Below, in pieces: positions 35,574 to 57,255 of a DNA stretch of 64,000 nt. The position numbers and the translations under genes were made by a program. The stretch spans positions 23,612 through 87,611 of the forward strand of contig MEMB01000007.1 of assembly GCA_001768735.1 (NCBI GenBank), written 5' to 3'. The first letter of the stretch is position 1, and each line of letters opens with the position of its first letter. The notes beneath the pieces are model-generated. The model ran no database searches. It had not been told where the DNA came from and saw nothing but the letters and a program-made list of their open reading frames with translations. This DNA is from Alphaproteobacteria bacterium GWF2_58_20. Lineage in GTDB: Bacteria > Pseudomonadota > Alphaproteobacteria > UBA1247.

Positions 35574-37271
35574 TTGCGCATGTCCGTTTTTGTTTGCCGC
35601 CGTAGCGGGGGAGTTTTCTGGGGTGTGCTGTTTTTGTCATGCCTTGCCATTCTTTCCTTGTCCGGATGCTCCGGGGTTCATGATCCTGAACTTGGCCTGA
35701 ACCGGGACGCCTATCGCAACATGACCGATCCTGTGCCGGATGCGTTCAAGACATCCCGCAAGGAAGCGCCTCCCATTCCGGATTTGTCCCCAACGATTGC
35801 CCGCCCGGCGATGCCGTTGCTGACGCCAAACCGCACGGTCAGCCTTTCCGTGACAAGCGCATTGTCCCTCAAGGATGTCATGTTTGAGCTTGCCCGCCAG
35901 GCGGAAGTGGATATTGAAATTGACCCGCGGATTGCCGGGGGGGTGGATTTTTCCGCCCACAACCGGCCTTTCCTGGATGTGATTGATCGCCTGTGTGACC
36001 TTGCCGGCCTGCGTTTCCGTATCCGCAACAATGTGGTCCGGGTGGAAATTGACGATCCCTATGTTTTCAATTATGAAGTTCCTTACCTGTCCATCATCCG
36101 CCAGACCCGCAGCAATATTGGTGTTTCCACGGATGTTGTGACGCCTGGCAGCAGCGCGGGGAGCGGGGATACCCGTTCAACGGCAAGCATCAGCGGAGAA
36201 TCGGATTCCAATTTCTTTGGGGAACTGGAAACCGGTCTCAAGGCCCTTCTGGCCAACACCACTCCGGCCGGCCTTTCTGCAACGCGTCCGGCAGACCAGC
36301 CAGCGGTTGTCCTGCACAAGCAGACAGGTATCATTTCGGTTTTCGGAACCCTCAAACAGCATCAGGCCGTGGCGGAATATCTCAAGCCACTGGTGGAAGC
36401 CTCCATGGCGCAGGTGCAGATTGATGCCCGGATCATCGAGGTCAATCTGGATGACCGTTACAAGAGCGGTGTTGACTGGACTTTTGTCATGCAGCAGGGG
36501 ACCATTTATACGCTGGGGTCAACCCTGACCAACTTCAATGACCCGAGTCCGCTCAACAACACATTTCAGGCGACGATTGACGGTTCGGATGTGGATCTGC
36601 TGGTCAACCTGATCCAGAAGTTTGGCACCACGCGCACCCTGTCCAGTCCGCGCGCCACGGTTCTCAACAACCAGTCCGCCATTCTCAAGGTTGCCCGGAA
36701 TTATGTGTATTTTGATGTGCAGGTGGATCGTGAAACCACGACGGATACCACGACCAGCAACAACCTGCCCCTGCTGACCGTCAGCAGTGACATCCGCACC
36801 ATTCCAATTGGTCTTGTCATGGCGGTCCAGCCTTCGGTGGATATGCGCACCAATGAAATTGTCCTCACGGTGCGTCCCACGGTGACAGAACTGGATTCAA
36901 CCGTCTCGGATCCGGCCGTGCAGTATATCAACAGCACGCTTGATCCCAATGCGGTGCGTGTGGAATCCCAGATCCCGGTCGTGCGCGTGCGGGAAATTGA
37001 CAGTGTGCTGCGCCTCCAGTCCGGAGAGGTTGCCGTTCTGGGCGGCCTGATGCAGGACAAGAGTGTCCTGGATGACGAGGGGCTGCCCGGTCTGGGAGAA
37101 ACCCCGGTTCTGGGCGATCTGGTCACCAAGCGTGAAAAGCTGCGGGATACCACGGAAATGGTGGTGTTGCTCAGGGCCCAGGTCCTGAAGAACGCATCTT
37201 CTGGAGTGACCGATGCCGACCGCCACCTTTACAAGACATTTGTCCGCGATCCGCGTCCGTTCAACTTTTAA
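35574..37271 (+). CDS. type IV pilus lipoprotein secretin (MshL/PilN-type)
   Basis: Lipobox LSLSGCSG. Secretin C-domain (VLRLQSGEVAVLGGLMQD ... GLPGLGETPVLGDLV ... TEMVVLLRAQVL). Confidence 0.8.
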   Translation: MRMSVFVCRRSGGVFWGVLFLSCLAILSLSGCSGVHDPELGLNRDAYRNMTDPVPDAFKTSRKEAPPIPDLSPTIARPAMPLLTPNRTVSLSVTSALSLKDVMFELARQAEVDIEIDPRIAGGVDFSAHNRPFLDVIDRLCDLAGLRFRIRNNVVRVEIDDPYVFNYEVPYLSIIRQTRSNIGVSTDVVTPGSSAGSGDTRSTASISGESDSNFFGELETGLKALLANTTPAGLSATRPADQPAVVLHKQTGIISVFGTLKQHQAVAEYLKPLVEASMAQVQIDARIIEVNLDDRYKSGVDWTFVMQQGTIYTLGSTLTNFNDPSPLNNTFQATIDGSDVDLLVNLIQKFGTTRTLSSPRATVLNNQSAILKVARNYVYFDVQVDRETTTDTTTSNNLPLLTVSSDIRTIPIGLVMAVQPSVDMRTNEIVLTVRPTVTELDSTVSDPAVQYINSTLDPNAVRVESQIPVVRVREIDSVLRLQSGEVAVLGGLMQDKSVLDDEGLPGLGETPVLGDLVTKREKLRDTTEMVVLLRAQVLKNASSGVTDADRHLYKTFVRDPRPFNF

Positions 37272-37286
37272 AGAGAAGGGGCGGAG

Positions 37287-38051
37287 ATGCTGCCGACACT
37301 GCGCTATCTCTTCCTGACGGCACGTCGTGACCGGTTGTTTCTGGCCATGATGGCGGCTTTTGGCCTTGTTGCCCTGCTGGGGAGCTTTATTGGCGACCAG
37401 TCCGTGATTGAGGGGCGGGAAGCGACAGCGGCGTTTGTCGCATTTTCCGGGCGCATGGTGCTGGTTTTCGGCATGGTGCTTTTTGTGGCAACCCATATTC
37501 GTCGCGCCTTTGAAAGCCGCGAAATCCTCATGATCCTGTCCCGGCCGGTGTCCCGCCATGGGTTTGTGCTGTCCTGCTGGGCAAGCTTTTCCATCATTGC
37601 CATCCTCCTCCTGGCTGTCTTTGGGGGGCTTCTTTATGTTGTTGCCCATCCGCCAGCGATGGGGCTTGTGTTGTTCATGGCCGGAATGCTGCTGGAAACC
37701 ACCCTGATGATCGGTGTGGCCCTGTTTTTCTCCCTGGGCATGGAAAGCGTGGTTGGGGTTGTGTTCTCCAGCTTTGGTTTTTATATGCTGGCCCGCATGA
37801 TGGGGGTTCTGGTTGCCATCGCCAATTCCGAATTCCGTGGGGTTGAATTGCCCATGGCGCTGGCGCTGGACCAGGTTGCCAACCTGATGTCCTTCATTTT
37901 TCCAAGGCTGGACCAGTTTGGCCAGTCGTCATGGCTGGTGTATGGCCGTGGACTTGACCTGTCTCTTGCGGGCATGGCCCTGCAGGTTGGGCTTTATACT
38001 GCCCTGGTGCTTGCTGCCGCGATTTTTGATTTCCGGCGCAAGCGGTTTTGA
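37287..38051 (+). CDS. ABC-2-type transporter permease-like membrane protein
   Basis: Six predicted TM helices, 254 aa. Immediately downstream of the secretin gene, with a 4-bp overlap to the next gene. Confidence 0.45.
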   Translation: MLPTLRYLFLTARRDRLFLAMMAAFGLVALLGSFIGDQSVIEGREATAAFVAFSGRMVLVFGMVLFVATHIRRAFESREILMILSRPVSRHGFVLSCWASFSIIAILLLAVFGGLLYVVAHPPAMGLVLFMAGMLLETTLMIGVALFFSLGMESVVGVVFSSFGFYMLARMMGVLVAIANSEFRGVELPMALALDQVANLMSFIFPRLDQFGQSSWLVYGRGLDLSLAGMALQVGLYTALVLAAAIFDFRRKRF

Positions 38052-38746
38052 TGGTTTTTCGCATGCGGTCATCGGGGAATGTTGTGTTGGGCTTCCTGCT
38101 GGTGGCCCTGACTGTGGCGCAAGGGGGGCTTGGATACCTGCTGCGCAAGGTTCCGCCCCATTACCACACGTTGTCTGCGCCTCCGGGGCATCAGGCCTTC
38201 GTGGCGCAAACCCTTGGAGATCCACAGTTCGGTTTTCGCATGGCCGGCTTGCGCCTTCAGCATGAGGGAAACCTGGATGGACGGATTTTGCCGTACAAGT
38301 CCATGGACTACAAGAGACTGGCGGACTGGTTTTCCTTGCTGGACAGGATGGATGCCACTTCCAGCGTGACGCCAACCATGGCGGCGTTCCTGTTTGTTTC
38401 ATCACAAACTCCGGAAGACACCCGTTACCTTGTGGATTACCTTGAACGGCATGCCATGCGCGATCCCCAGCACAAATGGCGCTGGCTGGCCCAGGCTGTG
38501 CATATTGCCTGGTATCGTCTTGGGGATCGGGACCGTTCCCTTGGCCTGGCGAAGGAACTGGCCGATCTTCCAGTGTCCGACCTGCCTTACTGGGCGCGCC
38601 AGATGCAGGTGTTTATCCTGATGGATTTGGGGGAAAAGCCGTCCGCGCGGGCCATTCTGGAAAAAATTGCCGAAACAGACCATAACCTGCCGGAAAATGA
38701 ACGGTTGTGGATGCAGCGGTTCATCCAGCGCCATCTTTCAGATTGA
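38048..38746 (+). CDS. membrane-anchored hypothetical protein
   Basis: N-terminal TM helix (VVLGFLLVALTVAQGGLGYLL) and a soluble domain with no motif recognised. Confidence 0.4.
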   Translation: MMVFRMRSSGNVVLGFLLVALTVAQGGLGYLLRKVPPHYHTLSAPPGHQAFVAQTLGDPQFGFRMAGLRLQHEGNLDGRILPYKSMDYKRLADWFSLLDRMDATSSVTPTMAAFLFVSSQTPEDTRYLVDYLERHAMRDPQHKWRWLAQAVHIAWYRLGDRDRSLGLAKELADLPVSDLPYWARQMQVFILMDLGEKPSARAILEKIAETDHNLPENERLWMQRFIQRHLSD

Positions 38747-38750: not shown

Positions 38751-39854
38751 ATGATGGAAGGGCTGCTCAATCTTGCAAACGGCCTTCAGGTCGCCGGACT
38801 TCTGGAAGGGTTGGTCCTGCTGGCTTTTATCCTGCGGCGCATTTGTGACCGGCGTCTCCTGGTTTTCCCTGTGGCGTATGTTGTTGCGGTTTCGGCGGGG
38901 TTCCTCATGCCGCTGTCGCAGCGTATCGACATGCAGGTGCCGGAAGCCGTCCTGATTGTCCTGAATGCCACCCTGTCGGGGTTCGGGTACCTTTTCATTC
39001 TCCAGCTTCTGGATGGACAGCCGCCGCGTCGCCTGCACCTGCTCGTGCTGATTCCGGCCTTGCTGGTTGTTCCTGGGGCGCTGGTAACTGCGGCCTCAAA
39101 GGGGCAGATGATGTGCTGGGGCGATGTCTGCATCATCCCGGCCGATTTTCTTCGGGTTTATGATGTCCTTGCAGGGGGGATGCTGCTTTTGGCCCTGCTG
39201 CTGGTTGCCGGGCGTCGTCTGGAAGCGCTGGTGGGGCGTCCCATGGGGCGTGAAAAACAGGCCTTGGTTTTGGCCATTGCCATGATGCAGGCCGCCCTGC
39301 TGGGGTTGGGGCTCGTTTTCCTTTCCGGCAGGATCGACCGGGCTGAAGCCGAAGTGGTGGATGCCATCTTGCGCCTGACCTTCCTTTATCTTCTGGCGTC
39401 TTCGGTGTTTCGCGTGTTCCAGTCGGCGTTTGACTTGCCGGAGCTTTCGGGGAACGAAAACCAGGAACATGCGCCGGGCCTGTCGGATGAGGATCTCAAG
39501 GTCATGGATGCCATCAGGGCGCTGATGACCATGGACAAGCTTTATCAGGAACAGGGGTTCAGCCGTGCGGACCTTGCCCGTGAACTCGCCCTTCCCGAAT
39601 ACCAGGTGAGCCGGATCATCAATGCCGGATTTGGGCAGACTTTTTCCGAAATGGTAAACGGGTATCGCCTGGACGAAGCGCGCCAGCTCCTGAAGGAAAC
39701 GGAGCAGCCTGTTGGCAGCATCGCTTTTGATGTCGGGTTTAATAGTCTGGCCTCCTTTAACCGGGTTTTCAAGGTGGGCACAGGCCAAAGCCCCACAGCC
39801 TTCCGGCAGGGCATCAAAATGGAATCGAAAATGGAGACCCCGGGTAAGTCTTGA
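38751..39854 (+). CDS. membrane-embedded AraC-family transcriptional regulator (about 7 TM helices plus C-terminal AraC HTH)
   Basis: Seven hydrophobic helices, then the AraC HTH (FSRADLARELALPEYQVSRIINAGFGQTFSEMVNGYRLDEARQLL ... SIAFDVGFNSLASFNRVFK). Confidence 0.7.
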   Translation: MMEGLLNLANGLQVAGLLEGLVLLAFILRRICDRRLLVFPVAYVVAVSAGFLMPLSQRIDMQVPEAVLIVLNATLSGFGYLFILQLLDGQPPRRLHLLVLIPALLVVPGALVTAASKGQMMCWGDVCIIPADFLRVYDVLAGGMLLLALLLVAGRRLEALVGRPMGREKQALVLAIAMMQAALLGLGLVFLSGRIDRAEAEVVDAILRLTFLYLLASSVFRVFQSAFDLPELSGNENQEHAPGLSDEDLKVMDAIRALMTMDKLYQEQGFSRADLARELALPEYQVSRIINAGFGQTFSEMVNGYRLDEARQLLKETEQPVGSIAFDVGFNSLASFNRVFKVGTGQSPTAFRQGIKMESKMETPGKS

Positions 39855-39966: not shown

Positions 39967-40755
39967 ATGAATCCGTTGAATTTGGCTTGGGGCGCGGCCT
40001 TTGCCCTTTTAGGTATGGTTTTTGGGAGTTTTTCCAGCCTTCTGTCCTATCGTCTTCCGCGCGATCTGCCGGTGGGCATGACCCGCTCGGCCTGTCCCTC
40101 CTGTCATCATGTCCTTGCCGCCCGCGATCTTGTCCCTTTGCTGGGATATGTTTTCCAGCATGGGCATTGCCGCTGGTGCCAGAAGGCGATTTCGCGCCGC
40201 TATCCCCTGATGGAACTGACCTGTGCGCTTCTTTTTGTCGTGGCATTCATGGCGTTCGGGGCGTCCTTGTCCGGGGTGCTTTTTGCGGGGCTGTCTTTTG
40301 CCCTTCTGGTGGTTGTGGTCAGTGACCTTGAAACCTATATCATTCCGGATACCATGGTGATTCTGGTTGGTGTGCTGGGGATCCTGTGGCGCTGGAAAGT
40401 TGTTCCAGGCTTTGGGGATGCGTTTCTCGGGGCTTTGTTGGGGGGAGGGTTGACCCTTGGGTTGCGTGCCTTGTTCCTGCTGCTGCGCCGCAAGCAGGGG
40501 TTGGGGCTCGGAGATGTGAAATTTATTGCGGTAGCCGGGATCTGGCTGGGATTTGAAGCCCTTCCATGGCTTCTGGTTCTGGGCGGGAGTTTCGGCGTGG
40601 TGTTTGGCATGGCATGGCAGGCGCGCAACAGGCTGTGCAGAAAGAAGCGGACATCCCGTCGCAAGCTGCCATCTTATTTCCCGTTTGGCCCCGCCCTTGC
40701 TTTTGCGCTTTATCTTCTGGTCCTGATCCAGCAACGCGGTTATCCATGGTTTTGA
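39967..40755 (+). CDS. pilD: prepilin peptidase (A24 family, PilD type with N-terminal zinc-binding CxxC pairs)
   Basis: CPSCHHVL ... CRWCQKAIS. Polytopic, with the catalytic Asp region (VVVSDLETYIIPD) and GLGDVKF. Confidence 0.85.
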   Translation: MNPLNLAWGAAFALLGMVFGSFSSLLSYRLPRDLPVGMTRSACPSCHHVLAARDLVPLLGYVFQHGHCRWCQKAISRRYPLMELTCALLFVVAFMAFGASLSGVLFAGLSFALLVVVVSDLETYIIPDTMVILVGVLGILWRWKVVPGFGDAFLGALLGGGLTLGLRALFLLLRRKQGLGLGDVKFIAVAGIWLGFEALPWLLVLGGSFGVVFGMAWQARNRLCRKKRTSRRKLPSYFPFGPALAFALYLLVLIQQRGYPWF

Positions 40756-41699: not shown

Positions 41700-41732
41700 T
41701 CGTTCTGTTTCCTGAACAACAGGAATGGGAAA

Positions 41733-41768
41733 GGGCCCTGCAAATGCAGGGCCCTTTCTTGTTTTTTT
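41733..41768 (+). terminator. rho-independent terminator after the pilin gene
   Basis: AAGGGCCCTGCAAATGCAGGGCCCTT hairpin, then TCTTGTTTTTTT. Confidence 0.7.
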
Positions 41769-41903: not shown

Positions 41904-44300
41904 ATGAAAGAATTTCAAAGGCGCGGGCGTGATGGGATCGTTTTCCTGTTTGCGGCAGGTGTGGTGATTGCTGTGGGGGCGATGGCCCTTCTCGGACGCA
42001 CGGCATTGGACCAGGCACGCCAGGAAACATCATCCCGCATTGTGACTTCCAAGGACATGTTGCGCATTCAGGATGCGATGCGCCTGTTTGTCAAGCGCAA
42101 CCAGCGCCTGCCTTGCCCGGCTGACGGGGCGGAATCCCTTTATTCGGATAATGGCAGTACGGAACGCTGGACGGCGGGCTACCGGAAATGCACTTTTGCC
42201 AGTGGCCATGACATGAGTTATGGTACCTTGCCGTGGCGGACGCTGGGCCTTCAGCCTGAGGATGCGCTCGACCGTTGGGGCCGACGCATTTCCTATCGCG
42301 CCTATGATGGCGATGGGGCTGGCATTGGCAGTTTGACATACGGGGAAGACATTTCCCCGACCTCCATCAAGCGGGGCATGAATTTCCTGGCGTGTGCCAA
42401 GGAAACCCTGGTGAGGGATCCTTCCCAATCCCCCACCTCCTCATTTAATACAACCATGCCGCCCACCAGCCACTGCGCCCAGGCGGCCATGACCGTTTAT
42501 ACAAATGATCTGGACAATCTTGACTTGTCCCTGCCGGCAACGGATCCCAGCTACGATGCGACCGGCTATGGCTGGCTTTACAACGAATTCCAGCGGCAGG
42601 AACTGATTGTTCCGCAGGTGGGGGGGCATGTCATCATCGGGACGGATGACCTGACCAGTGGAACGGAAGCCAATGATTACCGGCCCGCACTCGGCACCGG
42701 CACCGCCTACATGCTGATCTCGCATGGGGAAAACGGTCGTGGGGCCTGGCAGACATCCGGTGGGCAGAACAAGATGCCGGATTCTACGGATGAAAGCGAA
42801 AACGTGAATGCGAACACGGATTATATCGATCCGGGGTTCCGGGCCATCCACACCCTCAATGGAACGCAGGCGTTTGATGATATTGTGTTGACGGTTTCCG
42901 TTGAAAACCTGGCCAAGGAAGCTGGTCTCTGGATCAGCGATACTTATGATCCGGATGAATGGTCGCAGGCCATGCTGGACTATCTGGAAAGTGGTGGTGG
43001 GCCACAATATTTCGAAGACATGGATTTTGTGTATTTCCGAAAATCGGGTACGGCAAAGTCCGACCAGATCTCCTTCAATGAGAGCACCAGTCCGGAGGAG
43101 AACTTTATTGATTTTGGTTCGCCGACCACCGTGGGAACCAGCAATGACGGAATTGGCAGCGAGGTGATCCTGCGCAATTACCAGAGTGGCTGCGTGTGGC
43201 TGGACTTTCCTTTCCGCTGGACCCGGCAAACCATGAGGGCTTACTGGGAATTCCGGGTTTATGGTGGATCGGATTCGGCTGACGGTTATACCTTTGTCAT
43301 GGTGCCGGGAACAACAGTGACAACACCGGATGATTCGCCGTGCGGCAATTCCAAGGAAGGTGCGCTGTTTAGTTATTCGGATTATGTCAATGGCCTCATA
43401 CCGCCGGATTATGATCCCGCTCCTCCGGGCTATTCCTGGCCACACAAGCCGGTTGGTACCGATCTTGGTGCGATTGGTGCCAAGCCGTCAGATCCCCGCT
43501 ACAGTCCGCTTTATGAAGACAAGTTTCCCCAGCGGAAGATGGGGGTGGAGTTTGACTTTTACGCCTATGGCAATATTCGCAATGACCCGGCGAACAACCA
43601 CATCGCCGTGTTCCGGGAAAACTCCAACATCCATGGCAATCGCCTGTGCAGTGTGAATGCGCCTGGTTCGCCGCCGCAATCCTGCACGAATGACTGGACC
43701 TGGCAGGAAATATGGGGCACCAATCCCACCTGCTCTTTCGTCAGCAGTACGCCAGGGCAGCGCGGATGCGATATCGGCAATAATACCACCTGGATGGAAG
43801 ATCGTGATTATTGCAACATCAGTACGGATTTTTGCTGCATGCCGGGCACGGCAGGGAATAGCTGCAGGCACGATCATCCCAGCTGGGATGCCTGCAATTG
43901 CTGCATGGAGGACGATACTGCCTGCATCAATTATTTCAAAAGCCTGCGTCGTCCGCGTGTGACGCCGGACATCAGCGAATATCCCTACCGGGTGCGCATT
44001 GATGCCGACCGCTATTGCAACAGCAATTGCACGGTGTGCGGCGGCAGTGGCGGAGAATATGTCCATTTCAAATTGTGGACGGATTGCTCCACGGCAGCAT
44101 GTGCAGACATCCATACCCCTGCCAGCGCGTCCTTCGACAGTATTCCCGGCGTCAAGAGGCTGGATTATTGTTTCCGCGATCCGGGGATGGATGATGGCAA
44201 CATCAACCTGTTTGACACAGTCAAGGTCGGCTTTACCTACGGGACGGGTGCCAATATCAGCGGCATGCAGCTCAGCGGATTCAAAGTGGGGTCTGAATGA
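41904..44300 (+). CDS. large pilin-like / pilus-associated protein with Cys-rich C-terminal region (adhesin candidate)
   Basis: Hydrophobic pilin-like N-terminus. A shared domain with the next pilin (RLPCPADG ... LPWRTLGL). About 25 Cys in the C-terminal 300 aa. Confidence 0.55.
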   Translation: MKEFQRRGRDGIVFLFAAGVVIAVGAMALLGRTALDQARQETSSRIVTSKDMLRIQDAMRLFVKRNQRLPCPADGAESLYSDNGSTERWTAGYRKCTFASGHDMSYGTLPWRTLGLQPEDALDRWGRRISYRAYDGDGAGIGSLTYGEDISPTSIKRGMNFLACAKETLVRDPSQSPTSSFNTTMPPTSHCAQAAMTVYTNDLDNLDLSLPATDPSYDATGYGWLYNEFQRQELIVPQVGGHVIIGTDDLTSGTEANDYRPALGTGTAYMLISHGENGRGAWQTSGGQNKMPDSTDESENVNANTDYIDPGFRAIHTLNGTQAFDDIVLTVSVENLAKEAGLWISDTYDPDEWSQAMLDYLESGGGPQYFEDMDFVYFRKSGTAKSDQISFNESTSPEENFIDFGSPTTVGTSNDGIGSEVILRNYQSGCVWLDFPFRWTRQTMRAYWEFRVYGGSDSADGYTFVMVPGTTVTTPDDSPCGNSKEGALFSYSDYVNGLIPPDYDPAPPGYSWPHKPVGTDLGAIGAKPSDPRYSPLYEDKFPQRKMGVEFDFYAYGNIRNDPANNHIAVFRENSNIHGNRLCSVNAPGSPPQSCTNDWTWQEIWGTNPTCSFVSSTPGQRGCDIGNNTTWMEDRDYCNISTDFCCMPGTAGNSCRHDHPSWDACNCCMEDDTACINYFKSLRRPRVTPDISEYPYRVRIDADRYCNSNCTVCGGSGGEYVHFKLWTDCSTAACADIHTPASASFDSIPGVKRLDYCFRDPGMDDGNINLFDTVKVGFTYGTGANISGMQLSGFKVGSE

Positions 44301-45184
44301 GGATACGTAAACGCAAGGATGCAGGGTTTTCGCTGGTTGAACTGGCGGTGGTGCTCATTATTGTCGGTATCCTGACCGGTATGGGCATTACCAGCCTTTA
44401 TGCCTATATGGAACGGGAAAGCCGGGCCACCACCTTTGTGCGTCTGGATGCTGTTGAACAGGCCTTGTACCTTTATGCGGCCCGCAACAAGCGCCTGCCC
44501 TGTCCGGCAGATGGATCGCTTGCGGAAACCAATGCCAGTGCGGGGATTGAACAGCGCAGCGGCAATGTCTGCACCTCCGGTCTCCAGTACAGCACGGTTC
44601 CGTGGCGGGATCTGGGTCTTGCGCAAGGCGCCAGCTATGACGGCTGGAACCGCAAACTGACCTACCGGGTGTTTTATGATGCCACGGGAACGCCTGCGGG
44701 CCAGCGCGGGCTTGTGCGGCCGGGCGGAATGGACATGTCGCAGTGTGTTGCCAGTGCGGCCGACGATGGTGGGGCCATCACGGATTGTGCATCTGATGGC
44801 AGTACAGCCCCCATTGAGTTCCTGCGCAACAAGGGGTTGACCATACGCACCAATGTTGCACCGGCCGGTTCGGTCATTCGTTCGTCATCCACACCGGAAT
44901 ATGGTGGGGGGGCGGCTTTTGTCCTTGTCAGTCACGGGAAAAACGGCACTGGGGGGTATATCAAGTCGGGTGCCAATCCGGGACGGTCGGAATCCCCGCC
45001 GCTGAGTTCCCTGTCAGGGTATGTGATGGAGCTTGAAAATCTCGATTTTACAACGGATGACATTTACATTGATAGCCGCATGAGTGATGCACAAAATGCC
45101 GTGCCGGCGAATTTTTTCGATGACATCATCCGTGCCCCCAGCATTCACTGGGCGTCCGACAAAGCCAATTTGGGGCCGCAATAA
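44297..45184 (+). CDS. minor type IV pilin
   Basis: RKRKDAG|FSLVELAVVLIIVGIL prepilin signal. Paralogous to the previous gene (KRLPCPADG, VPWRDLGL). ATGA overlap. Confidence 0.75.
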   Translation: MRIRKRKDAGFSLVELAVVLIIVGILTGMGITSLYAYMERESRATTFVRLDAVEQALYLYAARNKRLPCPADGSLAETNASAGIEQRSGNVCTSGLQYSTVPWRDLGLAQGASYDGWNRKLTYRVFYDATGTPAGQRGLVRPGGMDMSQCVASAADDGGAITDCASDGSTAPIEFLRNKGLTIRTNVAPAGSVIRSSSTPEYGGGAAFVLVSHGKNGTGGYIKSGANPGRSESPPLSSLSGYVMELENLDFTTDDIYIDSRMSDAQNAVPANFFDDIIRAPSIHWASDKANLGPQ

Positions 45185-46971: not shown

Positions 46972-47826
46972 ATGCTTTATCTTGATCACTTCCGCCTGAA
47001 ATCCGAGCCTTTTGGCCTGACCCCCAACCGTGCGCTTTATTATCCTGAAAACCATGCCCAGATCCTTGCTGCGCTGATGTATGCGATTGAGCGCGGAGAA
47101 GGGATCGTGAAGGTTGTCGGTGAGGTGGGAACCGGAAAAACCATGCTCTGCCGCCTGCTGTTGCAGGCTTTGGATGATTTTGCCGAAGTGGCCTACATCA
47201 CGGCGCCGCGCACGGATCCCCTGGCCATTGTCAAGAATGTTTGCAAGGATTTCGGAATCAAGGTTTCAGGGCATCAGGATCCGTTTGACCTCCTGTCTCA
47301 GCACCTCATTGATGTGCGCAAAACCGGGCGCAAATCCATCCTCGTGGTAGATGAATCGCAGGCGCTGGGCGCCCGTGGGCTTGAAGCGGTCCGTCTTCTC
47401 ACCAATTATGAAACGGATGATTCCAAACTTTTGCAGGTTGTCCTGTTTGGCCAGCCGGAACTGGATGACCTCCTGCGCCAGCGCGATTTGCGCCAGCTGG
47501 CCCAGCGCATCACCTTCAGCCTTTATACCCGCGCCTTTGACCGGGATGCCGTTGGCCGCTACATCCACCACCGGGTTTCCCTCTGCACCTATGCGGAATC
47601 GCCGCATTACCTGTTTTCCAAGGTGGCTCTTGACATGATTGCCCGGGAAAGCCGTGGGGTGCCGCGTGTCGTCAATATCCTGGCAGATCGTTCCTTGCTG
47701 GCCGCTTATGCCGAAGGGGCCAAACAGGTGCAGCGTCGCCATGTGCGTGTGGCGGTTCAGGAAGGCATGCTGTGGCCCGAGTCTCCGTCCTTCTGGGCCC
47801 GCATGGTGGAAGCCATCCTGCCCTGA
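46972..47826 (+). CDS. ExeA/GspA-like AAA ATPase (MshM-like)
   Basis: LYLDHFRLKSEPFGLTPN ... VGEVGTGKTMLCRLL is the ExeA family N-terminus with Walker A. Confidence 0.8.
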   Translation: MLYLDHFRLKSEPFGLTPNRALYYPENHAQILAALMYAIERGEGIVKVVGEVGTGKTMLCRLLLQALDDFAEVAYITAPRTDPLAIVKNVCKDFGIKVSGHQDPFDLLSQHLIDVRKTGRKSILVVDESQALGARGLEAVRLLTNYETDDSKLLQVVLFGQPELDDLLRQRDLRQLAQRITFSLYTRAFDRDAVGRYIHHRVSLCTYAESPHYLFSKVALDMIARESRGVPRVVNILADRSLLAAYAEGAKQVQRRHVRVAVQEGMLWPESPSFWARMVEAILP

Positions 47827-47859: not shown

Positions 47860-48972
47860 GTGTTTGCACTTAATGACATCCTGCGTGAAGCGGTTCGGCA
47901 AAAGGCATCGGATATCCATCTTTCCAGTGGAAATCCGCCGATCCTGAGACTGGATGGCTTGCTTTCACCAATGCCCGGCGTGTTGGCGCGAACAGATGTC
48001 ATGCAGGCGCTCAAGGAAGTGGCGACGACACAACAGCTGGAAGATTTTGAAGGTAAGGGCGAGATTGACTTTTCCTTCGATTTTGACGGCCTGATGCGGT
48101 TCCGCGTGAATGCGTTTGAGACGCTGGAAGGCCCGGCCATGGTCATGCGGCTCATCCCCATGTCTCCGCCGACATTGCAGCAGATTGGTGCTCCGGCTGT
48201 CCTCAAGCAGATGGCGCATTTGCGAAAAGGGCTGGTGCTGGTGACAGGCCCAACGGGGTCGGGAAAATCCACCACGCTGGCCGCGATGATCAACTACATC
48301 AATGATGTCCTGCCCAGCCATATCCTCACGATCGAAGACCCCATAGAATACATTCACAAAAGCCGGCGTGCGCTGATCAACCAGCGGGAAGTGGGCCGGC
48401 ATTCCAGTTCTTTCCATAATGCGCTGCGTGGGGCATTGCGTGAGGATCCCAACGTGATCCTTGTCGGAGAAATGCGGGATCTTGAAACCATTTCGCTGGC
48501 GCTTACGGCTGCGGAAACCGGACATCTTGTGTTTGCCACCCTGCATACATCATCGGCTGCCAAGGCGGTGGATCGCATCATTGACGTTTTCTCGGCCAAT
48601 GAAAAGGCGCTGATGCGTACCATGGTGGCCAGTTCCCTGCAGGCGGTGGTCGCGCAGACACTTCTGCCAAGGGCAGGCGGTGGGCGCGTGGCGGCTTTCG
48701 AGGTGCTGGTTGCCAATCAGGCGGTGCGCAACCTCATTCGTGAAAACAAGATTTTCCAGATGGAAAGCATGATCCAGCTGGGGGCCAAGCATGGCATGCA
48801 GGGCATGAAGGAATCCATTCAGGAGCTGGTATCTTCCGGACAGGTGCGGGTTGAGGATGCCGAGGATCTCCTGCACGAGATAGAAGCTGACAAGAACGCC
48901 GGAGATGACGCCGGGGGCCGTGCGGGCGGATTGCATCAGCATCATCCAATGTCTGGGATGCCGCATCGCTAG
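47860..48972 (+). CDS. pilT: twitching-motility (retraction) ATPase PilT
   Basis: PilT N-terminus (NDILREAVRQKASDIHL), Walker A GPTGSGKSTT, His box and the AIRNLIRE-like motif. Confidence 0.85.
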   Translation: MFALNDILREAVRQKASDIHLSSGNPPILRLDGLLSPMPGVLARTDVMQALKEVATTQQLEDFEGKGEIDFSFDFDGLMRFRVNAFETLEGPAMVMRLIPMSPPTLQQIGAPAVLKQMAHLRKGLVLVTGPTGSGKSTTLAAMINYINDVLPSHILTIEDPIEYIHKSRRALINQREVGRHSSSFHNALRGALREDPNVILVGEMRDLETISLALTAAETGHLVFATLHTSSAAKAVDRIIDVFSANEKALMRTMVASSLQAVVAQTLLPRAGGGRVAAFEVLVANQAVRNLIRENKIFQMESMIQLGAKHGMQGMKESIQELVSSGQVRVEDAEDLLHEIEADKNAGDDAGGRAGGLHQHHPMSGMPHR

Positions 48973-49069
48973 AGCCTTGAGCGTTCATCTTGAATACCCC
49001 TGTTGCCTTGCGGCGGACTCATCCCAAGATCAACAGGAATTGTTCCATCCAAATGTTAAAGGCTTCAGC
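48969..49069. repeat. MITE-like element, short (internally deleted) copy
   Basis: Shares both ends (AGAGCnTTnAnCGTTCATCTTGAATACCCCTGTTGCCTT ... CATCCCAAGATCAACAGGnATTGTTC ... GTTAAA.GCT) with the element at 63595-63761. Confidence 0.6.
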
Positions 49070-49289
49070 GCTTCCGTTTTTCACATTTACGGGATTGACA
49101 GCCTTGCGATCATGCATGTTATGCTGATGGCCATGAACATGCATTCAGCAATATCCCTTGCCGGTTTCGGCATGGCGAAGATCTGGTGGGCCTTCTAACA
49201 GGCTCGCTGCTTTTGGACGTGTGTACGAATGGCTGCGGGAGATAAAAATTCCGCAGTCTTTTTTTATTTAAAATCAAAGGGAGGTCAGG

Positions 49290-50489
49290 ATGATGTCCGG
49301 AAAGAAAGAACAGGTTGAACATGGGTATTTTGGCGCCTACGGGGGGAAATTTGTTCCCGATGCGTTGGCTTCCCTGCTGGAGGGCCTGGGGCAGGTTTTC
49401 ACCGGAGCCATTGCAGAGGACTCCTTTCGGGAGGAACTGCAGGAGCTGCTGAAAGATTATGTCGGACGGCCATCCGCCCTGACCGAATGCCGCAATTTGT
49501 CTGAAGAATGTGGCGGGGGACGCCTTTTCCTGAAAAGGGAAGACCTCAACCATACAGGGGCACATAAAATCAACAATGCCCTTGGCCAGGCATTGTTGGC
49601 AAAACGGATGGGCAAGAAACGTCTGATTGCGGAAACCGGGGCGGGCATGCATGGCACAGCCACCGCAACGGTTGCTGCGCTCATGGGGATGGAATGCGTT
49701 GTGTATATGGGCGCTGTGGATGTGGCCCGGCAGGCGCCCAATGTGGCCCGGATGCGTGTTCTGGGAGCCAGGGTGGTTGCGGTTCATGATGGGCAGGGAA
49801 CCTTGAAGGAAGCGGTGGATGCTGCCTTGCAGGCATTCATTCAGGATCCGGAAGCCTTTTACCTGTTGGGTTCGGCGGTTGGTCCTGCGCCTTATCCAGA
49901 GATTGTCCGGTATTTTCAGAGTGTCATTGGAAGCGAGGCGCGGGCCGAAATCCTGCGACGGGAAGGGCGTCTTCCCGATGAGGTGGTGGCGTGTGTGGGC
50001 GGGGGCAGCAATGCCATTGGGTTGTTTTCCGCCTTCATGGATGATCCGGGGGTTGTCATGACAGGGGTTGAACCTGCCGGGAAAGGGCTCCAGTTTGGGC
50101 TTGGCGCACATGCGGCGACACTTTCAGCGGGTGCGCCCGGCATCATTCATGGTTTCCGGACGTATGTTCTTTCCGATGCGGACGGTAATCCTGCGCCCGT
50201 TCATTCTGTGGCTCCGGGGCTGGATTATCCCGGCGTCGGGCCGGAACATGCGTACCTCAAGGATATTGGGCGGGCGCAGTATGTTTCCGTTACGGATGCC
50301 GAGGCGCTGGCGGCTTTTTCACGCTTGTGCCGGAAGGAAGGGATCATCCCTGCGCTGGAGAGTGCGCATGCGCTGGCATATGCCCTGAAAGTGCTGCCGG
50401 AAATGAAAAAGGACCAGATTCTGCTTGTGAACCTTTCCGGTCGTGGCGACAAGGACCTGGAAACGGTACTGCCCATGCTGGGTCTCTGA
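49290..50489 (+). CDS. trpB: tryptophan synthase beta chain (stand-alone)
   Basis: GYFGAYGGKFVPD, the PLP-lysine motif HTGAHKINN and GGGSNAIG. No trpA adjacent. Confidence 0.85.
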   Translation: MMSGKKEQVEHGYFGAYGGKFVPDALASLLEGLGQVFTGAIAEDSFREELQELLKDYVGRPSALTECRNLSEECGGGRLFLKREDLNHTGAHKINNALGQALLAKRMGKKRLIAETGAGMHGTATATVAALMGMECVVYMGAVDVARQAPNVARMRVLGARVVAVHDGQGTLKEAVDAALQAFIQDPEAFYLLGSAVGPAPYPEIVRYFQSVIGSEARAEILRREGRLPDEVVACVGGGSNAIGLFSAFMDDPGVVMTGVEPAGKGLQFGLGAHAATLSAGAPGIIHGFRTYVLSDADGNPAPVHSVAPGLDYPGVGPEHAYLKDIGRAQYVSVTDAEALAAFSRLCRKEGIIPALESAHALAYALKVLPEMKKDQILLVNLSGRGDKDLETVLPMLGL

Positions 50490-50544: not shown

Positions 50545-51270
50545 TCACTCCGGCGTTTTTTCCGAGATGACCTTGAGAAAGGCGCGTTCCAGCGTGGGTT
50601 CCCCATGCATGGTGCGCAATTCATGCGGACTGCCAACATAACGGATGCAGCCTTCGTGCAGAACGGCAATGCGGTCGCAGAGTTCTTCCATGTCCGCAAG
50701 AATATGGGAGCTGAAAAAAATGCTGTGGCCGGCATTTCGATAGCTGGTGAGGGCATCCTTGAGACCAATGCGGACCAAGGGATCAAGGCCACTCATGGGT
50801 TCGTCAAGAATGAGGAGAGGCCGTTTGGTCATCAGGGTGCCGATGAGGCCGATTTTCTGTCCCATTCCCTTGGAGAACGTGGTGATCTTGCGGGAAAGGG
50901 CCGTCTCATCCAGTCCCATCTTGTGTGCAAGGGTGATGGCGGCATCACGGTCGAGTGGCAGATGGTAATAGGCAAGGGTCAGCTGCAGGAATTCCCAGCC
51001 CCGCAAGTGGAGGGATGGCAGAAACTGTTCAGGCAGGAAAGCAAGGTTTTCCCGGCTCTTCTGATCTTCTGCGCTGTGGGAAAAGACGGAGATTTTTCCG
51101 GAATCAATGGCGTGGAGACCTGTCAGGGTTTTGATCAGGGTGGTTTTCCCTGCACCATTCAAGCCAACCAGGCCAAAAATTTCTCCGGGCATCACCGCAA
51201 GGTTGACATCATGCAGGATGCGTTTGCGGCCATAACCAGCCACAACATTTTCCATGGACAGGATGCTCAT
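50545..51270 (-). CDS. ABC transporter ATP-binding protein (last gene of the pilus assembly operon)
   Basis: Walker A GLNGAGKTTL, ABC signature LSGGMGQKIG-like (FSKGMGQKIGL) and Walker B LILDEP. ATGA overlap with the upstream PilP-like gene. Confidence 0.8.
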   Translation of the reverse strand: MSILSMENVVAGYGRKRILHDVNLAVMPGEIFGLVGLNGAGKTTLIKTLTGLHAIDSGKISVFSHSAEDQKSRENLAFLPEQFLPSLHLRGWEFLQLTLAYYHLPLDRDAAITLAHKMGLDETALSRKITTFSKGMGQKIGLIGTLMTKRPLLILDEPMSGLDPLVRIGLKDALTSYRNAGHSIFFSSHILADMEELCDRIAVLHEGCIRYVGSPHELRTMHGEPTLERAFLKVISEKTPE

Positions 51271-54163: not shown

Positions 54164-55372
54164 TCAGATGGGCAGTTGCGAGAAGCTGTTGTAAACCGGG
54201 CCGAGAACCGAAACGATAATCCAGATCATGACGGCGCCAACCACAATAGTCAACAAAGGCTGGATGCTGGCCACCATGCCATCCACCGCCTCGTTGACGT
54301 CACGGTCATAGAAATAGCTGATATTGCCCAGACTTTCGCCCAGGTTGCCGGTTTCTTCACCAATCCGGATCATGCGCAGGATGAGTTCAGGGAATTCCCC
54401 GGAGCTTTTCATGGCGTTGGTGAGGGAATTTCCGCCTTCAACCATTTTGCGGACGATGTCAAGCGAAGTGGCCAGCGAGCGGTTGGCCACCACCCGGCTT
54501 GAGGTTTCCAGGCACTGCAAAACGCCGATGCCGCTCTGGAACATGATGGAGAAGAAGTGGGAAAACCGGGAGAGGGCAATTTTGCGCGCCGTGGGGCCAA
54601 TCAGGGGAATGCGGTACATGTAATGATCAAACGTATAAGCAGCGGTGGGGCTGAAACGGTACAGCAGGCGCGCCCCGATCACCACGACAAAAGGCAGCGA
54701 AATCACCAGCCACCAGTACGACTGGATGAAATCGGAGGCCTTGATGAGGATGCGGGTGGAAAGCGGCAGTTCAAGTCCGATGGTGGACAGGAAGCTGGTG
54801 AGCTGCGGGACCAGGAAGAACATCATCGACATCATCATGGCGAACATGGTGACAAGGAGGAAGAGGGGGTAACGGACAGCCTTCTTGATTTTCTTGCTGA
54901 TTTCATCGTTCCACTTGAGGTGGTGGACGAGATGGCCGAAAGATTCCGACATGTTTCCGGTTTGCTCGCCGGCAGCAATGAGGCCAACGAAAACCTGGTT
55001 GAATACAGCGGGATGCAGGGCAAAGGCTTCCGAAAGGAGTTTGCCGTTGCCCACATCACGGCAGACATCATTGAGGACGTCCCGCATGCGCGGGCTTTCC
55101 GTGGAATCCCGGATGTCCGAAAGGCTGTCCAGAATGGGGACGCCAACTTTTTCCAGTTGTTCAAGGTGTATGCACAGTTCAATGATGTCGCGTGTGCGGA
55201 TGGGGCGCGAGAGAATGGTCAGAAGGCGGTTTTCCTTGACTTCGCCGGCATCGACAAGGTCAAGGCCAATCTGCTTGAGCTGGAAATAAAGGTCGGTTTC
55301 ATTGACAGCCGTGATCTGTCCGCTGAGTTTGCGTCCGGCGGCGTTCATGGCCCGATAACGGTAACGTGCCAT
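54164..55372 (-). CDS. pilC: type IV pilus platform protein (GspF/PilC family, MshG-like)
   Basis: Two T2SS-F repeats, polytopic, ~400 aa. Confidence 0.8.
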   Translation of the reverse strand: MARYRYRAMNAAGRKLSGQITAVNETDLYFQLKQIGLDLVDAGEVKENRLLTILSRPIRTRDIIELCIHLEQLEKVGVPILDSLSDIRDSTESPRMRDVLNDVCRDVGNGKLLSEAFALHPAVFNQVFVGLIAAGEQTGNMSESFGHLVHHLKWNDEISKKIKKAVRYPLFLLVTMFAMMMSMMFFLVPQLTSFLSTIGLELPLSTRILIKASDFIQSYWWLVISLPFVVVIGARLLYRFSPTAAYTFDHYMYRIPLIGPTARKIALSRFSHFFSIMFQSGIGVLQCLETSSRVVANRSLATSLDIVRKMVEGGNSLTNAMKSSGEFPELILRMIRIGEETGNLGESLGNISYFYDRDVNEAVDGMVASIQPLLTIVVGAVMIWIIVSVLGPVYNSFSQLPI

Positions 55373-55374
55373 TG

Positions 55375-57255
55375 TCAGAGCCTCTCGACCATGTTGATGG
55401 TGCCAATGAGTTCCTCAAGGCTTGTTTCGCCTCCCAGAACCTTGCGCAGGCCATTCTCCTGCATGGTTTCAACGCCCTCATTGCGTGCCTGCTTGAGAAT
55501 GGTGCCGCGGGTGGCATTTTCCGAAACCAGTTCATCGAGGGCGGACGTAAAGGGAACCACCTCCACAACGGCCGTCCGGCCCTTGTAACCGGTGTTGCGG
55601 CACTTGGGACATCCAACAGCCTTGTAAAGGGTTGGCGGGGTTGCCGCATCCACCCCGATGATTCCGCACTCCCGTGCGTCTGCCGTGTAGGACTGGCGAC
55701 AATCCCGGCAGAGCCTGCGGATGAGGCGCTGGGCCATGACCAGGATGATGTTGCCCGCCAGCATGGGGGGCGGCAGGCCAAGGTCCACAAGGCGGCTGAT
55801 GGCGGAAATGGCATCATTGGTGTGCAGGGTGGTGAAAACCTGATGGCCGGTCATGGCGGCGCGCAGGGCCATGGTGGCGGTTTCCGTGTCACGGACTTCG
55901 CCGACAAACACGATGTCAGGGTCCTGTCGCAGGATGGAACGGACGCCTTCCGAAAATCCCATGCCGCCCACATCGCGCACGTCCGACTGGCGAATGAGCG
56001 CAAGCTGGTATTCGACCGGCTCTTCGAGCGTCATGATGTTGACGTCCATCGAATTGAGGTAGTTGAGGATGGAATAGAGCGTGGTGGTTTTACCGGAACC
56101 GGTAGGACCCGTGACGATGATGATGCCTTCGGGCCTCAGGAGCTGCTTCTTGAGCAGGGCTACAATGCTTTCATCATAGCCGAGGGTCTCAAGCGGCACC
56201 AGGGACTTGGCCTTGTCCAGAACGCGGATGACAATGTTTTCGCCATGGATGGTGGGGTGGGAAGCCACGCGGAAATCCACCTCGCGGGAGCCGACATTGA
56301 AGGAAAAACGGCCATCCTGCGGGTTCCGGGTTTCCGCGATATTCATGCCTGCCATGATTTTGAGGCGCACGCAGACGGAAGCCCAGTAATCCTTGTGAAA
56401 AGTGCGGATTTGCGTCATGACGCCGTCGATGCGGTAACGCAGGCGGACAAACATGGCGTCCGGTTCAAAGTGAAGATCGGATGCGTTGGTCTTGATGGCG
56501 TCAAGGATGAGGGCATTGACGAGGCGGACGGTCGGGTTCACGAACCCTTCCTCGCCGGTCATGACGGCGGAGGCCGCATCGCCCTTTTCAATTTCCCTGA
56601 GCAACCCGTCAATCGACATTTCGTAGCCGTAATAGGTGTCGATGGCGTCGGCGAGTTCGGTGTCGGATGCGACCAGCGGGATGATTTCAATGCCCTTGGG
56701 GAAGTAGCGGCGGGCCTGGTCAATCGCCAGCACGTTGAACACGTCGGCCATGGCGAGGCGAACCTCGCGCTCGGTCAGGGCCACGGGCAGGATCTTGTAG
56801 CGTTCGGCGATCTGGCGCGGAATGATCTTGACGATGTCGGCATCCAGCACGGAATGCCGGAAGTCAAAGCGTTCAAGGCCGCTGCTTTCGGAAAGGGTGG
56901 CGGCCAACGCATTTTCGGTGATGAACCCAAGGTCCACCATGACTTCGCCGAGCAGTTTCTGGGTGCGTTTCTGCTCCAGCAGGGCGACTTCAAGCTGGTC
57001 TCCGGAAATGAGGCCTTTCTCCACCAGCCATTCGCCGATGCGGATTTTCTGGCCCTGGGCGCTGACCAACCCATGGGGGGGCGGCATGTGCCCTGTGAGC
57101 GTATGGGGCGTTGGGCGTGCGGCTGCCTGTTGGACATCCTCAATCGAAACAGGAGAAATGTGTTCCCGTTTTTGCGCGCCAAGGCTATTGAAAAGCGATG
57201 GTTTTGGGGCATTTCCCGGCGGTTTGCCCGGGGGCGGCGGAGGGGTCATGGCCAT
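55375..57255 (-). CDS. pilB: type IV pilus assembly ATPase (GspE/PilB family) with MshEN-type N-terminal c-di-GMP-binding motif
   Basis: Walker A GPTGSGKTTT and a tetra-Cys zinc motif (CRDCRQ ... CPKCRNTG). The N-terminal RIGEWLVEKGLISGDQLEVALLEQ matches the 24-residue MshEN motif RLGxxLVxxGLIxxxxLxxxLxxQ. Confidence 0.85.
   Translation of the reverse strand: MAMTPPPPPGKPPGNAPKPSLFNSLGAQKREHISPVSIEDVQQAAARPTPHTLTGHMPPPHGLVSAQGQKIRIGEWLVEKGLISGDQLEVALLEQKRTQKLLGEVMVDLGFITENALAATLSESSGLERFDFRHSVLDADIVKIIPRQIAERYKILPVALTEREVRLAMADVFNVLAIDQARRYFPKGIEIIPLVASDTELADAIDTYYGYEMSIDGLLREIEKGDAASAVMTGEEGFVNPTVRLVNALILDAIKTNASDLHFEPDAMFVRLRYRIDGVMTQIRTFHKDYWASVCVRLKIMAGMNIAETRNPQDGRFSFNVGSREVDFRVASHPTIHGENIVIRVLDKAKSLVPLETLGYDESIVALLKKQLLRPEGIIIVTGPTGSGKTTTLYSILNYLNSMDVNIMTLEEPVEYQLALIRQSDVRDVGGMGFSEGVRSILRQDPDIVFVGEVRDTETATMALRAAMTGHQVFTTLHTNDAISAISRLVDLGLPPPMLAGNIILVMAQRLIRRLCRDCRQSYTADARECGIIGVDAATPPTLYKAVGCPKCRNTGYKGRTAVVEVVPFTSALDELVSENATRGTILKQARNEGVETMQENGLRKVLGGETSLEELIGTINMVERL

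Follow-up and report, generated by a model that had tools for sequence, protein, structure and literature searches.

A predicted type IV pilus locus of the MSH-related class, with an ABC-2 transporter module, in an uncultured alphaproteobacterium

Organization of the pilus locus

The assembly of Alphaproteobacteria bacterium GWF2_58_20 (GCA_001768735.1), a metagenome-assembled genome (MAG), harbors a cluster of type IV pilus (T4P) genes that is described here from a stretch of 64,000 nucleotides of contig MEMB01000007.1 (positions 23,612 to 87,611 of the forward strand), referred to throughout as the window. Between window positions 35574 and 57255, 18 proteins of one T4P machine are encoded in two convergently transcribed blocks, separated by trpB and a short repeat element (Table 1). 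Gene assignments rely on a list of open reading frames (ORFs) and on Pfam and NCBIfam scans of the window proteins. An initial annotation of the same DNA had proposed a system resembling the mannose-sensitive hemagglutinin (MSHA) pilus, and the genes that it listed are all borne out, in position and strand, by the ORF list and the domain scans.

Table 1. Features of the pilus locus and of the segment between its two blocks, in window coordinates
Feature	Position	Strand	Basis
MshL-type secretin with lipoprotein signal (LSLSG/C; slash, cleavage site)	35574-37271	+	Pfam Secretin E 3e-27; lipobox by sequence reading
ABC-2-type permease, 254 aa, ~6 transmembrane (TM) helices	37287-38051	+	Orthologue Pfam matches, TM profile
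232-aa single-pass membrane protein, helical weakly TPR-like domain, putative ABC-module accessory	38048-38746	+	Unannotated family
Membrane-embedded AraC-family regulator, ~7 TM helices and HTH_18	38754-39854 (alternative start 38667)	+	HTH_18 E 1.5e-20, TM profile
Prepilin peptidase PilD	39967-40755	+	A24_N_bact E 1.4e-26; Peptidase_A24 E 3e-14; two CxxC pairs
Major prepilin, 236 aa	40989-41699	+	Called gene with N_methyl; prepilin signal
Inverted repeat (hairpin), 30 nt, 3' of the major pilin gene	41729-41758		
798-aa modular pilin-like protein	41904-44300	+	Paralogy to 295-aa minor pilin, fold matches
Minor pilin, 295 aa, G/FSLVE	44297-45184	+	N_methyl E 2e-6; TIGR02532
Small secreted protein, 109 aa, system membership uncertain	45184-45513	+	Signal peptide by sequence reading
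MshN-like single-pass membrane protein, C-terminal TPR repeats	45607-46971	+	TPR families; TM helix ~residues 49-74
MshM/ExeA-like AAA_22 ATPase	46972-47826	+	AAA_22 E 1e-25
Retraction ATPase PilT	47860-48972	+	TIGR01420 451 bits vs cut-off 319; Walker A GPTGSGKS; AVRNLIRE motif
Short repeat flanked by terminal inverted repeats (MITE-like), overlaps pilT stop codon, outside the machine	~48969-49066	none	
TrpB	49290-50489	+	Pfam/NCBIfam scan
ABC ATPase, DrrA/NodI/GldA type	50545-51270	-	ABC_tran E 2e-24; DrrA subfamily 139 bits, GldA 119 bits
PilP/MshK-like periplasmic protein, 187 aa	51267-51830	-	Position and topology only
PilO/MshJ-like bitopic protein, 230 aa	51827-52519	-	Position and topology only
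PilM-PilN fusion (MshI-like), 545 aa	52516-54153	-	Fold and profile
Platform protein PilC/MshG	54164-55372	-	T2SSF E 4e-48, two stretches
Extension ATPase, MshE/PilB type, N-terminal MshEN	55375-57255	-	T2SSE E 9e-125 and MshEN

The minus-strand block is transcribed in the order MshE/PilB-type ATPase, PilC, 545-aa protein, 230-aa protein, 187-aa protein and ABC ATPase. At many gene boundaries the start and stop codons overlap or adjoin (38048/38051, 44297/44300, 45184, 46971/46972, 51267/51270, 51827/51830 and 52516/52519), and the genes therefore form operons. Neither Pfam nor NCBIfam returns a match at E ≤ 0.01 for the three alignment-complex proteins (545, 230 and 187 aa), the permease, or the 232-aa, 798-aa and 109-aa proteins. 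The cluster is a real and complete pilus locus whose outline is well explained and of which a few components are genuinely uncharacterized; judged from its genes, it is probably functional.

Secretin, motors and assignment to an MSH-related class

The secretin is closest to the MshL family. Among the NCBIfam models, TIGR02519 (MshL) scores best, with a full-length match (2-290/290) of 197 bits against a cut-off of 250. The secretins of related gamma- and betaproteobacterial loci reach 252-267 bits with this model and those of Alphaproteobacteria 197-227 bits (210-227 in the alphaproteobacterial relatives).

The extension ATPase, of the hexameric MshE type, scores 424-433 bits against PilB and PilF structures in the PDB, 340 bits against GspE and 62 bits against the N-domain of Vibrio cholerae MshE (5htl). 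The MshEN domain of the initial annotation is present, both as an MshEN match and as the cyclic di-GMP (c-di-GMP) motif of NF053729 (67 bits, cut-off 38); the motif itself, the 24 residues RIGEWLVEKGLISGDQLEVALLEQ, is intact at residues 72-95. Before the motif stands a proline-rich, low-complexity extension of ~70 residues, and the ATPases of most relatives align to the window protein from residue ~60-73 onward only.

An ExeA-like ATPase and a tetratricopeptide repeat (TPR) protein had likewise been reported, and both are found: the AAA_22 ATPase adjoins a TM-TPR protein, to whose gene its own is translationally coupled. The AAA_22 ATPase is 40-59% identical to ATPases encoded beside MshL-type secretins in related loci, and 40-43% identical to those beside secretins that exceed the MshL cut-off. 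The gene for the MshN-like TM-TPR protein is conserved in relatives, where it adjoins the AAA_22 ATPase or PilT. The platform protein, with its two T2SSF domains, and the prepilin signal G/FSLVE are generic traits of type IV filaments and are not specific to MSH.

Because the secretin is best matched by MshL, the motor carries an MshE-related c-di-GMP motif, and MshM-like and MshN-like genes stand side by side, the system is classed, on sequence comparison, as an MSH-related T4P and not as a Tad pilus or a type II secretion system (T2SS). To this extent the MSHA-like reading holds. The system is not, by the same comparisons, a canonical MSHA, since its secretin scores below the MshL cut-off, the locus has its own PilD and PilT genes, and an ABC-2 module is an integral part of it. 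The locus thus very probably encodes a complete, self-contained and retractable T4P that, within the MSH (MSHA-related) class, represents an alphaproteobacterial branch.

The window system and V. cholerae MSHA have in common MshL as the best secretin model, the MshM-like AAA_22 ATPase, the MshN-like TPR protein, an MshE with a c-di-GMP-binding motif, an MshG-type platform, an MshI-like PilM-N fusion and confinement to a single locus. They differ in the sub-threshold secretin score, the ABC-2 module and 7-TM AraC regulator of the window, and the gene order, which in V. cholerae we take to be mshHIJKLMNEGF / mshBACDOPQ; three pilin-like genes lie in the window, compared with presumably seven in V. 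cholerae. A prepilin peptidase is reportedly absent from MSH loci (Denise et al. 2019, PMC6668835), whereas the window locus, although single, encodes both PilD and PilT. PilD is also found inside the locus in several alphaproteobacterial relatives.

Distribution and related loci

Searches with the ATPase retrieve alphaproteobacterial MAGs first (50-76% identity), and gamma-, beta- and deltaproteobacterial loci next (~50%). In a neighbor-joining tree of the ATPases, which is unrooted and built without reference type IVa pilus (T4aP) and T2SS sequences, a Rhodospirillales-type clade (the window and its closest relative, locus L001), a Rickettsiales clade and a gamma/beta/delta clade are separated. 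The gamma-, beta- and deltaproteobacterial loci follow the order MshM-secretin-TPR-MshE-PilC-PilMN-PilO-PilP-minor pilins. Examples from Methylophilaceae ME-M6 (L073), Teredinibacter (L043) and Pseudomonadales (L041), with MshE ~50% identical to that of the window, resemble it in their MshM, secretin, TPR, MshE, PilC, ~545-aa PilMN and PilO- and PilP-sized genes, in an RLPCPADG-type minor pilin and, in some, in a permease, 232-aa protein, pilin and ABC ATPase. In contrast with the window locus, their secretins exceed the MshL cut-off, their MshM is often longer and ExeA-like, no PilD or PilT occurs within the stretches seen, their genes are collinear and not convergent, and their MshE proteins fall in a separate clade.

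The initial annotation held such a system to be uncommon in Alphaproteobacteria. This agrees with the literature, in which MSH is placed in Gammaproteobacteria, Chrysiogenetes and Epsilonproteobacteria and Alphaproteobacteria are never named (PMC6668835), but the same system is present in ~30 species-level MAGs of Rhodospirillales, Rickettsiales and Midichloriaceae, and it cannot be called rare among uncultured members of the class.

The T4P of Rickettsiales (Mitibacteraceae, Athabascaceae, Deianiraeaceae, Midichloriaceae) are presented, in the searched passages of two papers, as ancestral and probably used for host-cell attachment (PMC9352585, PMC10847448); the term in those parts is the generic 'T4P', with neither an MSH relationship nor an ABC module brought up. 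The MshE proteins of Rickettsiales and Midichloriaceae MAGs are 50-61% identical to that of the window and, where the flanks are seen, these loci contain the MshE-PilC-PilMN-PilO-PilP-ABC ATPase block together with a convergent PilU-PilT pair. The window differs in that it comes from a Rhodospirillaceae-labelled MAG. A literature search on MSHA and Rickettsiales returned nothing relevant, and neither the link to MSH nor the ABC module nor a lectin pilin is described in the limited literature searched, an absence that is not proof.

The ABC-2 module and the AraC-family regulator

The permease, the 232-aa protein and the ABC ATPase constitute an ABC-2 module. The initial annotation had called the 254-aa protein ABC-2 permease-like; the window protein alone matches ABC2_membrane_4 at E 0.011, but six of 11 orthologues match this family (best E 8e-6) and, with ~6 TM helices predicted, the label is therefore reasonable. 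DrrA/NodI/GldA-type ABC ATPases pair with ABC-2 permeases. In every relative with a visible secretin region, the secretin gene is followed by those for the permease and the 232-aa protein, and in nearly all alphaproteobacterial relatives the ABC ATPase gene follows the PilP-like gene. The ABC genes of the window are split, with the permease and 232-aa genes in the secretin operon and the ATPase gene in the alignment-complex operon.

The 232-aa protein has no significant match in Pfam, NCBIfam or the PDB, searches with its family profile included. Its family comprises at least 520 homologues, and among those listed none has a Pfam domain and every source name is 'hypothetical protein'. In MSH-like loci the protein always adjoins the ABC-2 permease and a pilin gene, and this extends to two distant members in MSH-type loci, one on a deltaproteobacterial contig (L085) and one on a gammaproteobacterial chromosome (L086). 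The whole ABC module is found in three gammaproteobacterial loci (L033, L041 and L059), and the permease alone at the end of a fourth (L076). No such module is seen in the 10-kb flanks of the loci of Teredinibacter sp. ISS155 (L043) and Methylophilaceae ME-M6 (L073). The ABC-2 module is thus an integral and conserved part of the locus across relatives.

The nearest precedent for an ABC transporter inside a pilus cluster is PilGHI of Myxococcus, which lies in a T4aP cluster and is described as indispensable for moving pilin across the inner membrane (PMC3724824, PMC6060248). The Myxococcus xanthus proteins, reported to be required for pilin export and pilus assembly (PMC3724824, PMC6060248), consist of an ABC ATPase, an ABC-2-type permease and a small accessory protein encoded beside the pilin gene, as in the window. 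The likeness drawn here is one of gene set, the host system is T4aP and not MSH-type, and the three genes in the window are divided between two operons. By this analogy, the most probable role of the ABC-2 module is to help the cell handle pilins or build the pilus at the inner membrane, which is the weakest step of the interpretation.

Alternatively, the module might serve to export a glycan, a lipid or another small molecule whose only tie to the pilus is shared regulation, such as a donor for pilin glycosylation or a matrix polysaccharide. The ATPase does belong to a DrrA/NodI/GldA-like group serving ABC-2 exporters of non-protein substrates, the Ser/Thr-rich C-terminus of the major pilin could be glycosylated, and the parallel with PilGHI is without demonstrated homology; yet the three genes are interleaved and translationally coupled with the secretin and PilP-like genes, the module accompanies the pilus family over alpha, gamma and delta lineages, and the Pfam and NCBIfam scans detect no glycosyltransferase or polysaccharide gene in the locus. 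Export of such a substrate is accordingly regarded as a minority prospect, behind a role of the ABC-2 module in pilin handling.

The 7-TM AraC gene occupies an equivalent position in two related loci (L004 and L015), and its product probably controls transcription of the adjacent pilin genes.

Alternative assignments of the machine

An ordinary T4aP (PilABCDMNOPQT) serving twitching or DNA uptake, with a superficial resemblance to MSHA, is an unlikely explanation of the locus. PilD and PilT are encoded in it and PilT passes the T4aP PilT/PilU model, but the PilQ model (TIGR02515, cut-off 284) gives the secretin 60 bits, limited to the C-terminal 120 residues, as opposed to 197 bits for MshL, and thus no PilQ-type secretin is found. 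The ATPase is matched best by T4aP PilB/PilF structures, with TIGR02538 (PilB) slightly above GspE, and MshEN c-di-GMP domains occur in some PilB/PilF proteins as well (PDB 8pfa, 9g1w); against this, PilM and PilN are not encoded by separate genes but are fused, PilO and PilP go undetected by family models, MshM-like and MshN-like genes are present, and everything lies in a single locus. In addition, the nearest relatives outside Alphaproteobacteria have MshL-passing secretins and the M-L-N-E-G gene order.

The remaining candidates, Tad/Flp and T2SS, fit neither the ATPase, the secretin nor the PilT scores. A Tad/Flp system was rejected, as the ATPase scores ~38 bits against CpaF structures and 60 bits with the TadA-family model (cut-off 373), and the 236-aa pilin has a canonical type IVa-like signal. 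A T2SS or another pseudopilus machine that exports proteins without a surface pilus is most improbable: the platform protein has GspF as its best NCBIfam match (299 bits, below the cut-off), the N-terminus of the minor pilin matches GspG and the PilM-like domain resembles, at a lower rank, the GspL cytoplasmic domain, but a PilT retraction ATPase is present, the motor scores ~90 bits lower to GspE than to PilB and 489 bits with the GspE model (cut-off 630), the secretin scores 92 bits with the GspD model (cut-off 351), the 236-aa pilin is large and carries a disulfide pair at its C-terminus, and the Pfam and NCBIfam scans give no GspC or GspM match, no GspC/L/M set and no GspH-K set.

The alignment complex

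The 545-aa protein was described initially as a PilM-N fusion (MshI-like), and fold and profile comparisons uphold this. It has no Pfam or NCBIfam match, and a Pfam scan of 17 orthologues returned noise only. An AlphaFold2 model built with 19 homologues has a predicted local distance difference test (pLDDT) score of 77.8, and its top Foldseek matches are PilM structures (5eox, 5eou, 2ych and 3jc8_Ma; E ~2e-9), followed by FtsA and the GspL cytoplasmic domain. A TM helix spans residues 324-352, and the PilMN family profile matches M. xanthus PilN (3jc8) over positions 325-435 at E 1e-4. By the model and the profile, the protein is a PilM-PilN fusion.

The next two proteins are designated from position and topology. 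The PilO-like protein has one N-terminal TM helix, and its homologues stand downstream of the PilMN gene in alpha- and gammaproteobacterial loci. The PilP-like protein has a signal peptide, and its C-terminal region is conserved (W..WLN..V.L.W). A PDB profile search gave no credible match for the PilO-like family, and neither a Pfam scan nor a PDB profile search did so for the PilP-like protein and family. An hhalign comparison of the PilO-like family with the PilN part of the PilMN family reached 14% probability and is unusable. The two identities are therefore putative.

Pilins and the 798-aa protein with a probable lectin domain

The major prepilin has an 11-residue leader (MTTNGKQTQAG), a class III signal with cleavage after Gly11 (G/FSLVELA), a Cys pair at the C-terminus and a C-terminus rich in Ser and Thr. 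The initial annotation gave a major pilin followed by a terminator; a pilin gene with a downstream hairpin is present (Table 1), but the 150-aa and 270-aa ORFs of the mechanical ORF list are not the pilin. The 295-aa minor pilin and the 798-aa protein are paralogues with a common domain (RLPCPADG / SHG.NG.G / FDD), and homologues of the minor pilin occur in alpha- and gamma/betaproteobacterial MSH-type loci. No homologue of the 109-aa secreted protein was found in any related locus.

The 798-aa protein is modular. Residues 1 to ~340 form a pilin-like module that shares the motifs RLPCPADG, ISHGENGRGA and FDDIV with the 295-aa pilin; its N-terminus has a Gly-hydrophobic signal, and Glu5 is absent according to the family alignment. 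The C-terminal module holds 20 of the 24 cysteines and long Cys-rich insertions. Seven full-length homologues were found in a collection of 5.8 billion proteins, and the C-terminal 399 residues matched 22 cluster representatives among 1.84 billion.

Several lines of evidence point to a lectin. The C-terminal module contains, in order, SADGYTF (458), DLGAIGA (520), MGVEFDF (546), NIRNDP (557), NNHIAV (564) and VKVGFTYGTG (773), which, read against pea lectin (a sequence identical to PDB 5t7p_A), would represent the signatures of the sugar and metal sites of legume lectins and their last strands. Two of five tested pea-lectin segments exceed shuffled controls (20/1000 and 5/1000). Legume lectins make up all of the top 50 Foldseek matches of the modelled protein (E down to 4e-7, TM-target score 0.54-0.63), at a model pLDDT of only 51; the fold matches therefore serve as supporting evidence only. 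Weak, sub-threshold matches to Lectin_L-type_dom were obtained for three of seven family members (E 0.011). Ten more distant relatives yield three matches to Lectin_legB (E ~5e-4) and one to Lectin_L-type_dom, all below curated cut-offs. An N_methyl signal is detected in one distant relative and Laminin_G_3 in one homologue. A profile of the lectin module finds no match in the PDB, and hhalign aligned it with pea lectin at the ADG motif alone, with 4% probability. On balance, the C-terminal module likely has an L-type lectin fold, as far as the model allows.

A comparable arrangement is known from PilC of Streptococcus sanguinis, a minor pilin of modular build whose ConA-like lectin module is a proposed glycan binder at the pilus tip (PMC9934059). 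In both proteins a pilin-like N-terminal module is joined to a lectin-type beta-sandwich, a predicted one in the 798-aa protein. S. sanguinis is a monoderm host and the lectin module of its PilC superposes on human galectin Gal-7 (PMC9934059), whereas the predicted domain of the 798-aa protein resembles legume (L-type) lectins with ADG / VEFD / NH motifs, has Cys-rich insertions and follows a pilin module of ~340 aa that is common to a second minor pilin.

A large and small pair like that of the window is encoded in L086 (Gammaproteobacteria MAG GCA_034522055.1), where an 877-aa protein is followed by a 304-aa N_methyl pilin (locus coordinates 839-4383). Interspersed with the pilus genes of this locus are a gene with a guanylate-cyclase domain and a GGDEF gene.

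Proposed mechanism and significance

The gene content suggests how the machine may work. PilD would cleave the pilins, and MshE, activated by c-di-GMP, would polymerize them on PilC. The PilMN, PilO-like and PilP-like proteins would link the motor to the secretin, whose assembly may be helped by MshM and MshN, by analogy with ExeA; the fiber would exit via the lipoprotein secretin and be retracted by PilT. The two paralogous pilin-like (RLPCPADG-type) proteins are predicted to prime the filament and to remain at its tip, where the 798-aa protein, without Glu5 like tip pseudopilins, would display a metal-dependent L-type lectin domain. With a lectin at its tip, the pilus would act as a retractable adhesin that binds glycans. 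The ABC-2 transporter, made up of ATPase, permease and 232-aa accessory, may contribute to the handling of pilins or to biogenesis of the pilus in the way reported for Myxococcus PilGHI, and the 7-TM AraC protein would govern pilin expression.

Several points weigh against this interpretation. At 197 bits, the secretin does not reach the MshL cut-off (250). No homology to PilO is detected in the PilO-like protein, nor any to PilP in the PilP-like one. The more usual substrates of ABC-2 exporters are glycans, lipids or drugs. The lectin assignment draws on a model of pLDDT 51, sub-threshold Pfam matches and a failed profile search. Lastly, the locus is known from the genes of a MAG alone.

A broader and distinctly speculative proposal would join these elements. 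It holds that the ABC-2 transporter could be an obligatory, unrecognized subsystem of MSH-related pili in Alpha-, Beta-, Gamma- and Deltaproteobacteria, equivalent to PilGHI in pilin handling, and that the alphaproteobacterial branch, including the pilus thought to be ancestral to Rickettsiales, might present a legume-lectin-like tip pilin to glycans of hosts or prey.

The assignment bears on the T4P of Rickettsiales and their relatives, which have been invoked as an ancestral host-attachment device and would fall in an MSH-related branch that has a peptidase, a retraction motor and an ABC transporter of its own. Current family models fail to recognize the PilM-N fusion, the 232-aa accessory and the PilO-like and PilP-like proteins. 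The ABC module may generalize the poorly understood requirement for PilGHI in Myxococcus. A lectin-bearing tip pilin predicts a glycan receptor, and the motor is predicted to be gated by c-di-GMP. Members of this pilus family are likely to be under-called by annotation pipelines and by MSH models that were tuned on Gammaproteobacteria.

The junction between the two blocks

The initial annotation described the pilus system as split by trpB. The two opposed halves are real; trpB, however, is not what sets them apart. In relatives the MshE-PilC-PilMN-PilO-PilP-ABC ATPase block converges on PilU-PilT-TPR-minor pilins, with secretin-permease-232-aa protein-(AraC)-pilin upstream, and the convergent layout is therefore the norm of the family. 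Relatives usually encode PilT and a PilU-like paralogue, the latter at the junction in the place that trpB holds in the window. As relatives carry PilU there and the closest relative (L001, MshE 76% identity) has neither PilU nor trpB, the trpB gene is an insertion specific to this lineage.

A copy of a miniature inverted-repeat transposable element (MITE) had also been placed between the halves, and a repeat flanked by terminal inverted repeats is found there, with a second, longer copy at ~63599-63765 that is flanked in the same way; CTAGAGCATTTAACGTT represents the terminal inverted repeats of the long copy. The copy after pilT lacks ~67 internal bases of the long copy, and its terminal repeat provides the pilT stop codon.

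The trpB gene stands alone, with no trpA or trpF adjoining. The segment ahead of it (49112-49289) contains a 28-codon ORF, MHVMLMAMNMHSAISLAGFGMAKIWWAF followed by a stop codon, with two adjacent Trp codons near its end, then a strong hairpin with a T-run (49231-49258) and a ribosome-binding site directly before trpB. By sequence, this region looks like a Trp leader-peptide attenuator.

Genomic surroundings

The pilus locus is flanked on one side by a tRNA-Thr gene and on the other by a 179-aa gene, followed by ligA, recN, bamD, lpxC and ftsZAQ. The tRNA-Thr gene (anticodon TGT, 35414-35489) lies 85 bp upstream of the secretin gene and is the sole RNA-family match in the window. The GC content is 0.55-0.58 in the locus and 0.57-0.62 in the flanks. 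A genomic island, suggested by the tRNA gene and the lower GC content, was considered but is not favored: the closest relatives have the same architecture, and the drop in GC is small. The 179-aa protein (57338-57877, minus strand), encoded between ligA and the MshE gene, has a weak TerB-like match (E 1.6e-4, below the cut-off) and no homologue in any related pilus locus.

At ~21318-29003, ~13 kb from the pilus locus, the window contains dnaA, dnaN, recF and gyrB and is therefore near the chromosomal replication origin; anaerobic ribonucleotide reductase (NrdD/NrdG) is encoded further upstream of this region. Just upstream of the pilus locus, on the minus strand (31624-35246), are genes for a 377-aa DotM_C protein and an 828-aa TrwB/TraG-type coupling protein (DotL-like), which suggest a Dot/Icm-type type IVB secretion system in the MAG. 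These are followed by genes for a He_PIG-domain protein (466 aa) and a 337-aa protein.

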